A stretch of DNA of 64,000 nt from the IMG/VR virus record IMGVR_UViG_3300025133_000042, positions 1 through 64,000 of that record. One strand, 5' to 3'. The notes under the pieces were generated by a model. It saw only the letters and a program-made list of their open reading frames with translations. It ran no database searches and had not been told where the DNA came from. The number at the start of each line of letters is the position of its first letter. Position 1 is the stretch's first letter. The position numbers and the translations under genes were made by a program. This DNA is from a virus. Below are positions 16,299 to 17,925 of the stretch, piece by piece.

Positions 16299-17132
16299 TT
16301 AGAAACTCCTCGAAATCATTGCGGAAACGCCCTCGGTGCCAAACTGGCGGGTGAAGTGGGCGGCGAGCTTGCCGCGCAAGTCCTTCTCAATTTGGCCGCA
16401 GCGCTGCTTGGTCACTCCGAAAGAATCGGCCGAAACACGCTCTTCGCCGCGCAACTCGTTGATAATACGACCGTTCAGGATGTCACGCTGTCGGGGCTTT
16501 AGGCTGTCAGCGAAAGCGGTCACTGCGGCCTGAATATTCGCAGAATTCTGCGTTCGCTCCATCGCGACATCTTGCGGCATGCTGCCGTCACCGATGAGCG
16601 TGGCAATCGTGCCACCGTCGGCGGAGAGGGGTGCATCCATCGAGGCACCGCGCGCGGTCATGTACTTCAGGCATGCAGCGGTGTCGGTGGCGTCGAGGTC
16701 GAGGTGTGCCGCAATCGCTTCGGGCGTTGCGTCCTGGCCGATGACCTTGCGCGCCTTCTGGAGCGAAGACCATAGCTTCTTGCTGGTGCGGCTCCCGCAG
16801 TGGACCAGCCCAGCGTTTGCCTGGACGTGCTCTTGACACTTTGCTGTCATCCACTGCCGGGCGTAGGTGGTGAAGCTCGCGCCCTTCGTCGGGTCGAACT
16901 TGTTAATTGCGGTCAGGATGCCCTCGACGCATGCGCTCATGAGGTCATCGAATTGAAGACCCTTGCGCTGGTGACGCTTGGCGACCTTGAAGGCTAGCCG
17001 GATGTTGGATTGCACGAGGTCGCGGCGGGCTTGCTCGTCGCCTGTCTTCTGTGCCAGGACTACAAGCTCGCTCTGAGCGGACTTGCTAAGGATGATTGCG
17101 GTGGCGGCTAGGTTGGTCAGTGCGTTGCTCAT
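16299..17132 (-). CDS. RNA polymerase sigma70-family factor (RpoD/RpoH-like)
   Basis: region 2: LVQSNIRLAFKVAKR, DDLM, AINKFDPTKG, FTTYARQW; region 4: FGVTKQRCGQIE. Confidence 0.9.
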   Translation of the reverse strand: MSNALTNLAATAIILSKSAQSELVVLAQKTGDEQARRDLVQSNIRLAFKVAKRHQRKGLQFDDLMSACVEGILTAINKFDPTKGASFTTYARQWMTAKCQEHVQANAGLVHCGSRTSKKLWSSLQKARKVIGQDATPEAIAAHLDLDATDTAACLKYMTARGASMDAPLSADGGTIATLIGDGSMPQDVAMERTQNSANIQAAVTAFADSLKPRQRDILNGRIINELRGEERVSADSFGVTKQRCGQIEKDLRGKLAAHFTRQFGTEGVSAMISRSF

Positions 17133-17194
17133 ATTTTTGGAGTCTCTCCGGTGTGTTTCGTTGGCTACAGGTAAACAGTAAGAACCGTTTCGGG

Positions 17195-17332
17195 CTAGAC
17201 AAGGGGCAGGGTGAAGTTTTTTTCACTTTTCCTGGCCTCGACCAGAAACTGAATCATTCCAGCAATATAGCCTGTCATAAAGCTGCAAGTGAATGAAATG
17301 ATTGCGATTTCGGTGATTTCTGCTGCTGTCAT
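17195..17332 (-). CDS. 45-aa single-TM peptide (not in ORF track)
   Basis: MTAAEITEIAIISFTCSFMTGYIAGMIQFLVEARK...; GGAGG RBS; directly below the sigma54 promoter. Confidence 0.55.
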   Translation of the reverse strand: MTAAEITEIAIISFTCSFMTGYIAGMIQFLVEARKSEKNFTLPLV

Positions 17333-17373
17333 CTAGGGTGCCCTCCGGCGTCGTTAATTCTTACCCCTATATA

Positions 17374-17391
17374 TTGCAAGCTGCGTGCCAA
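17374..17391 (-). promoter_or_regulatory. sigma54 (-24/-12) promoter
   Basis: TTGGCACGCAGCTTGCAA matches TGGCACRNNNNTTGCW. Confidence 0.8.
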
Positions 17392-17408
17392 GTCCTGAAT
17401 TTACGTGA

Positions 17409-17421
17409 TATCAAGGAGTTA
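17409..17421 (+). promoter_or_regulatory. IHF binding site
   Basis: TATCAAGGAGTTA matches WATCAANNNNTTR, just upstream of the -24 box. Confidence 0.7.
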
Positions 17422-17523
17422 GGTCACATAACTGTGCAAGTATTGCCGTGTTCTCGCCACTTCTTGCATAGCGTTGCGTGCAGCGTTTAGGCATGAATCG
17501 CGCATTTATTGCGCGGTGTCTAA

Positions 17524-17853: not shown

Positions 17854-17925
17854 ATGCTGGGCTCCTATTCCCTGGGTACACTTATATCATAGGAACGGCA
17901 AAGAGAGGGTAAAGGGTTTTTTTAA

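Follow-up and report, generated by a model that had tools for sequence, protein, structure and literature searches.

Phage sigma factors are commonly portrayed as components of a fixed clock, set going by the host housekeeping polymerase. A sigma54 promoter cannot fire without an ATP-dependent activator, and activators of this kind normally convey nitrogen, carbon, motility or stress status. Here we describe a viral locus at which a sigma54-type promoter, termed P1, lies upstream of a gene for a sigma70-family sigma factor. The locus is found in the virus record IMGVR_UViG_3300025133_000042 of IMG/VR, and positions 1 to 64,000 of that record form the stretch of DNA analysed, referred to below as the window. 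On the sequence comparisons given below the architecture of this unit is strongly supported, and P1 is a real and probably functional promoter. We consider it likely that P1 is an enhancer-dependent promoter that would use host sigma54, a host activator of the NtrC family and an IHF-type bend, giving a messenger RNA (mRNA) for a membrane peptide and the sigma factor, with a second promoter (P2) or read-through providing activator-independent expression.

The use of host sigma54 by phages is rare but, judging from the accounts of phage YuA cited here, documented. Development of this Pseudomonas aeruginosa phage depends on host sigma54 (PMC5053324; bioRxiv 10.1101/2023.10.13.562163, citing Ceyssens et al. 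2008). As far as the cited passages describe it, YuA resembles the present case in being a tailed phage without an activator of its own and in having a sigma54-like promoter among its mapped promoters. It differs in being a cultured 58-kb siphovirus with experimental evidence, whereas the evidence here is solely comparative; and those passages report no sigma54 promoter before a YuA sigma gene, whereas the target here is the phage's own sigma factor. The Rrp2-RpoN-RpoS cascade of Borrelia burgdorferi is similar in that a sigma54 promoter and an NtrC-type activator drive a gene of the sigma70 family, which then controls a large programme (PMC3037356, PMC2940757). However, that cascade is entirely cellular, while here the sigma factor is viral and sigma54 and its activator would be those of the host. 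At glmY and glmZ, several sites for the activator GlrR and IHF sites lie upstream of a -24/-12 promoter, and in some related genomes a sigma70 promoter overlaps the sigma54 promoter or takes its place (PMC3045617), as is also seen among the phages studied here. In contrast to the palindromes described below, the GlrR sites have the form TGTC-N10-GACA, and the products are small RNAs (PMC3045617); the turnover there is gradual, whereas whole cassettes are swapped by recombination here. The sigma factors of the Bacillus phage SPO1 (PMC13401047) and of T4 (gp55) likewise take over the host core polymerase for later genes. Their genes, however, are read by the host housekeeping sigma factor at early or middle times, and no enhancer-dependent sigma54 input features in these circuits as described. 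Literature searches turned up no account of a sigma54 enhancer promoter preceding a phage sigma gene. Very few phages are known to place a bacterial sigma54 promoter before their own sigma gene. Sigma54-type promoters may be commoner in uncultured phages than the literature suggests.

All genes and motifs of the finding lie on the minus strand, the IHF consensus being given as it reads on the plus strand. Distances are counted from the predicted start near G17364, and type B denotes one of the two kinds of upstream region distinguished below. In the direction of transcription the layout is as follows.

17524, minus strand: stop codon of a 109-amino-acid gene, the first element of the layout
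17514-17500, minus strand: palindrome 1, GCGCA-N5-TGCGC, centred at about -143; the yGCA-N5-TGCr dyad is kept in 10 type-B relatives; candidate activator site
17490-17478, minus strand: block CTAAACGCTGCAC, centred at about -120; TAAACG is invariant in type-B relatives
17472-17454, minus strand: block GCTATGCAAGAAGTGGCGA, centred at about -99; conserved in the alignment; candidate activator site
17446-17436, minus strand: palindrome 2, GCAA-N3-TTGC, centred at about -77; GCAAnAnnTGC is kept in type-B relatives; candidate activator site
17409-17421, plus strand: exact IHF consensus TATCAAGGAGTTA, centred at about -51, between the palindromes and the -24 box
17390-17375, minus strand: -24/-12 core box of P1, TGGCACGCAGCTTGCA, an exact match to TGGCAC-N5-TTGCW
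17374-17364, minus strand: ATATATA followed by GGGG, conserved among relatives and outside the core box
17332-17195, minus strand: 45-amino-acid membrane peptide with a single hydrophobic span and a GGAGGG Shine-Dalgarno sequence; first gene of the proposed P1 transcript
about 17204-17175, minus strand: P2, TTGTCT-N16-TACTGT (CCTTGTCT-N..-GGTTCTTACTGT), preceded by an A-rich tract; a weaker member of a sigma70-like class
17132-16299, minus strand: sigma70-family sigma factor of 277 amino acids (Pfam Sigma70_r2, E 3.8e-14)

The -24/-12 box, the IHF consensus, the 45-amino-acid transmembrane peptide and the sigma70-family gene had all been pointed out in a preliminary description of this stretch, and each of them was borne out. 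The box and the IHF site are exact matches, the peptide is a real, conserved open reading frame (ORF) with a Shine-Dalgarno sequence, and the sigma gene is identified both by Pfam Sigma70_r2 and by the superfamily cut-off of NCBIfam.

In the P1 box, GG falls at 17389-17388 and GC at 17377-17376, which gives exactly the 10-nt spacing between GG and GC that is required of a sigma54 promoter. When the C of GC is set at -12, the A/T run that relatives conserve extends from -10 to -4 and their conserved stretch of G spans the start site, the arrangement expected where a promoter must be melted and then started. By the usual sigma54 geometry, transcription is predicted to start near G17364, 12 nt below this C. 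Apart from P1, no exact copy of the box occurs in the window or elsewhere in the 104,857-base record. With up to one mismatch allowed, TGGCAC-N5-TTGCW has 7 matches in the window against 2.55 expected; one of these, TGGCACGCAAGTTGCG at 19950-19935 on the minus strand, was discarded as it lies inside an ORF of 115 amino acids (20132-19785) and is within chance expectation. The box is thus effectively unique in the record and is dedicated, as a single copy, to the sigma gene.

The box could in principle be read by another factor, either sigma70 with ATATATA as its -10 element or a phage factor of an unrecognised kind. The conserved TTGCA-ATATATA does resemble an extended -10 region, and overlapping sigma70 and sigma54 promoters are known at the enterobacterial glmY and glmZ genes (PMC3045617). 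However, TGGCAC at -24 is the best-conserved part of the element and would have no role with sigma70, and the sole -35-like hexamer, TTGGCA, lies 12 nt from TATATA, too close for sigma70. Relatives that do use sigma70 carry a quite different module at this place, TGnTATACT with a CTCTA..TAGAG palindrome. We regard recognition by such a factor as very improbable.

The sigma protein scored 68.4 bits against the NCBIfam TIGR02937 superfamily (cut-off 42.9) and holds region 2 together with regions 3-4 in one protein, the combination that defines the family. Its best profiles are RpoH and RpoS, aligned over residues 14-262 and nearly the whole profile length, but it falls below the equivalog cut-offs of both and is not assigned as a true RpoH or RpoS. 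When the intergenic DNA of the record was examined for enriched k-mers, no promoter motif for this sigma factor emerged. The 45-amino-acid peptide has at least 16 distinct homologous sequences, with the consensus M..E(I/L)AIIS.AFG..LGYLIGI, and is also found behind the sigma70-type module. It was always seen between the distal promoter, of sigma54 or sigma70 type, and P2.

To assess conservation, sigma loci were gathered from viral and metagenome contigs; 93 loci including the window were analysed, 78 of them with enough upstream DNA. Conservation of the box in relatives, on which the preliminary description had let its claim stand or fall, is found in 43 of the 78 loci, where the box is in sense orientation and precedes the start codon of the sigma homologue by 41-476 nt. 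The same pattern gave 2 matches in a control of 464 kb of antisense and downstream sequence, from which about 0.15 matches would be expected by chance in the upstream regions. Among 33 non-redundant box copies, the identities of the sigma factors span 43-91%, and TGGCA and TGCA are invariant, with 10 different versions of the N5 spacer between them. Conservation in these 33 loci extends beyond the search pattern, to aaGT upstream and gGGta downstream. IMG/VR was also scanned with an extended pattern, TTGGCAC-N5-TTGCAATATATA, and 11 loci were found. Five of them (on four separate contigs, one of which has two) are directly upstream of sigma homologues of the same family, and one further locus, on a fifth contig, has the box upstream of a weak sigma-like match (28% identity). 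Two complete relatives were available, G001 (180.7 kb, with terminal repeats) and G004 (189.6 kb). One box each is present in G000, G003 and G004, and two in G001, the second of which was rejected as a promoter because it lies within a long ORF.

Promoter type changes at least 14 times on the tree of sigma proteins. The enhancer-plus-box region of the window is 86% identical to that of locus L033, although the sigma factors are 67% identical; compared with L025, the region is 65% identical and the sigma factors 90%. Recombination of the regulatory cassette is therefore independent of the gene that it controls, and at least three interchangeable regulatory cassettes, one of them the enhancer-promoter unit, occur at the sigma locus in this phage clade. 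In 24 relatives an alternative cassette occupies the same position just upstream of the membrane peptide: two inverted IHF-like motifs come first, then TGnTATACT, then a CTCTA..TAGAG palindrome. A loose motif for this module also matched the window by chance, and a stricter pattern was used for classification. The alternative cassette is probably a sigma70-type extended -10 promoter with an operator and would be repressible. In L041, L031, L045 and others it lies about 260-340 nt before the sigma ATG and contains a conserved TTAGCGATGTCGATTT block and TGnTATACT as the extended -10; the palindrome CTCTAnnnTAGAG lies at the start site, and CCCATTGAWATCA is present upstream as two inverted copies.

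The same core promoter is accompanied by two kinds of upstream region. Type B comprises the window and nine other loci, in which both palindromes and both blocks are conserved in the alignment. Type A carries 20-bp dyads of the form GTGyGwAA-N4-TTwCrCAC, mostly at about -100 and -152, and is found beside the box in the complete genome G001. The palindromes of the window stand at distances typical of an enhancer, which fits the view that they are candidate activator sites. In IMG/VR the arrangement with the type-B enhancer block CTAAACGCTGCAC was found at the sigma locus alone, the other nine matches being chance occurrences in coding DNA. The dyads named in the preliminary description are present as sequence, with TGCAAG at 17468-17463 and CTTGCA at 17440-17435, and CGCGCA-N5-TGCGCG at 17515-17499. 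However, TGCAAG-N22-CTTGCA was ruled out as a conserved unit, since relatives conserve the shorter palindromes and the blocks instead. The palindromes may bear some resemblance to LuxO and NtrC sites, although the order of the half-sites differs; this is a weak lead and was not used as evidence. The first 8 bases of the block at 17472-17454 coincide with the start of the Escherichia coli AtoC sites, with about 14 of 20 positions agreeing overall, a weak lead to an activator (PMC3118216, Table 5). In several relatives (L122, which is G001:179900-180711, and L085, L098, L100 and L101) a small Cys-rich gene of about 75 amino acids, with the motifs CDxDxxCVTPGQRRKLNVH and CKGC, immediately precedes the promoter region of the sigma gene. 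This gene has a promoter of the P2 class of its own, and the type-A enhancer dyads overlap its 3' end.

An IHF-like motif with at most one mismatch is found in 15 of 33 loci, at just two fixed distances from the box; the background is 5.7% per equal stretch. In the window as a whole, 10 of the 12 matches to the IHF pattern WATCAANNNNTTR have the plus orientation, which is antisense for nearly every gene.

The proteins that such a promoter would require were sought among the phage genes. Neither the record nor the complete relatives G001 and G004 gave a match to PF00158, the sigma54-activator domain, and no GAFTGA motif was found in six frames. Searches for an RpoN DNA-binding domain, for HU/IHF and for a Fis-type HTH_8 domain likewise found none in the record and the two complete relatives. 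The absence of an activator, asserted earlier for the window, thus extends to the whole record and to both complete relatives, and a self-contained phage sigma54 system was rejected, as neither PF00158 nor GAFTGA occurs in these three sequences. All of the trans factors would therefore come from the host. Every sigma54 activator known to us is an AAA+ protein with PF00158.

One alternative is that P1 uses host sigma54 but is activated by an unrecognised phage product, in which case P1 would be a timer within the phage programme and would not sense the state of the host. The pairing of one core promoter with two unrelated enhancer types, A and B, speaks for this alternative, as does the movement of the enhancer module independently of the sigma gene, which is expected if the sites co-evolve with a phage protein. 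Candidates for the activator are an early protein or a MoxR/CobS-like AAA+ ATPase encoded at 23718-22660, an AAA_5 gene about 5 kb upstream in the direction of transcription. However, the best matches of the AAA_5 protein are weak ones to profiles of the CobS, RFC and MoxR type, and the lack of PF00158, GAFTGA and HTH_8 in the three sequences examined is hard to reconcile with a phage activator when the known activators are all of the PF00158 type. We therefore consider activation by a phage product unlikely.

If P1 is instead driven by host factors, as we favour, the following sequence of events is proposed. Host sigma54 holoenzyme would dock on the -24/-12 box at 17390-17375 as a closed complex, and a host activator of the NtrC family would bind the conserved palindromes centred at about -77, -99 and -143. 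An IHF-type bend at about -51 would bring the activator to the polymerase, ATP hydrolysis would melt ATATATA, and transcription would start in GGGG near 17364. The resulting mRNA would encode the 45-amino-acid membrane peptide and the sigma factor, which would then redirect host polymerase to later phage genes, while P2 would give expression without the activator. Binding, activation, the start site and the identity of the activator and of the host are inferred here from established sigma54 biology. On this evidence, part of the phage gene programme probably waits for a host activator protein.

The P2 element precedes the sigma start codon by 40-70 nt, and in relatives it takes the form TTGACC-N16-TATTAT behind an A-rich tract. 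The class recurs on the same strand before small genes upstream of the sigma gene, with copies in the record at 17915, 18489 and 22472, and G003 and G004 contain clusters of about 15 such promoters each. One member stands before the 109-amino-acid gene at the head of the layout.

17913-17886, minus strand: P2-class promoter TTTACC-N16-TATGAT, before the 109-amino-acid gene at 17853-17524

This member and that at 18487-18460 both score 9/12 and were flagged by a plain sigma70 scan. It seems rather more plausible that the class consists of phage early promoters read by host sigma70 than that its members are targets of the phage sigma factor itself; in the latter, less favoured case, P2 would be an autoregulatory amplifier.

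The position of P2 also bears on whether the box is productive. It may be that the box binds sigma54 holoenzyme without making a transcript, as a roadblock or insulator against read-through from early promoters or as a sigma54 sink, with the sigma factor expressed from P2. It is established that sigma54 holoenzyme makes stable, silent closed complexes, and widespread sigma54 binding without obvious transcription has been reported (PMC4591121). In keeping with this, P2 lies downstream of the box, and no terminator was found between the upstream promoters and the sigma gene. However, binding alone needs neither conserved palindromes at enhancer distances nor a bend motif; an A/T segment for melting and a G start, both conserved, are signs of initiation. 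In relatives of the G001 type, moreover, 41 nt separate the box from the sigma start codon, and no P2 lies between the two. We judge non-productive binding to be quite improbable.

Several observations weigh against P1 as a working promoter for host sigma54. The box is absent from 35 of the 78 loci, which consist of 24 with the sigma70-type module, 9 with P2 alone and 2 with none of these promoter types, and sigma54 input is therefore dispensable for the clade. The IHF pattern WATCAANNNNTTR has 12 matches in the window against 4.2 expected, so that a single match means little by itself; the commonest form in relatives is TTTCAAGGGGTTA, one mismatch from the IHF consensus. The IHF-like motif is found at further promoters of the clade too, so that its ligand may be some protein other than IHF. 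The palindromes gave no match to any activator site that could be verified, and no RNA run among public sequencing runs is listed as containing this DNA. Of the DNA runs, at least six have 72% or more of the sampled words in common with it. On the gene strand, no terminator-like site was found between 18.6 and 15.8 kb, and read-through into the sigma gene is therefore possible; together with P2 it could supply the sigma factor without P1. The preliminary description had reported a weak promoter that might give basal expression. The element is present at 17202-17175, but it belongs to a conserved, recurrent sigma70-like class, which weakens strict gating.

Activator-independent expression from P2 would mean that P1 adds a conditional, host-dependent input and is not an absolute gate, and strict gating of the sigma gene by P1 is doubtful. 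The enhancer, IHF-like and sigma54 layout of the preliminary description thus holds, while its proposal that a host-state switch gates the sigma factor is weakened by the P2 class, the absence of a terminator-like site and the 24 sigma70-type and 9 P2-alone relatives. We tentatively suggest, as a possibility that we do not favour, that this widespread clade of large marine phages reads a host signalling pathway through a borrowed sigma54 enhancer-promoter, and so times the production of its sigma factor and with it the passage to later infection stages, with different lineages plugging in different sensor cassettes. It is equally tentative that these cassettes would be the two enhancer types, or the sigma70 module with its operator. 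If the promoter works as predicted, host physiology would feed directly into a phage transcription switch, and the swapping of cassettes among relatives would show how phages retune this host input. Were the host-sensing proposal true, it would amount to a modular, exchangeable input of host state into lytic development in the ocean.

The record that contains the locus is 104,857 bases long and is estimated to be 58% complete. Its genes include those for a DnaE-type polymerase, DnaB, ribonucleotide reductase, UvsX and GroEL. A nucleotide search of GenBank phages gave no match for the window DNA, and protein searches found no close cultured relative of the phage. The 287 homologues of the sigma factor come nearly all from marine metagenomes, including Tara; a search for host assignment found no close cellular homologue of the sigma factor and did not identify a host. 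The G+C content of the window is 50-54% between 16000 and 26000 and 37-46% across most of the remainder. This G+C-rich stretch contains the sigma gene, the sigma70-like promoter class and the MoxR/CobS-like AAA+ gene with its DUF2201 VWA partner, and it looks like a mosaic module common to G+C-richer relatives.

Boxes of this kind were also seen in unrelated phages. The extended box TTGGCAC-N5-TTGCAATATATA occurs in the IMG/VR contigs L005, L007, L008 and L009, in regions that by eye seem intergenic and with no sigma homologue nearby. An unrelated jumbo phage (L012/G002, a viral contig of 344,580 bases) has at least 4 exact sigma54 boxes on one strand within 16 kb (about 190.6-206.8 kb). One of these boxes is upstream of a sigma-like gene, and an ORF of 918 amino acids in the same contig weakly matches the sigma54-activator domain (E 2e-10).

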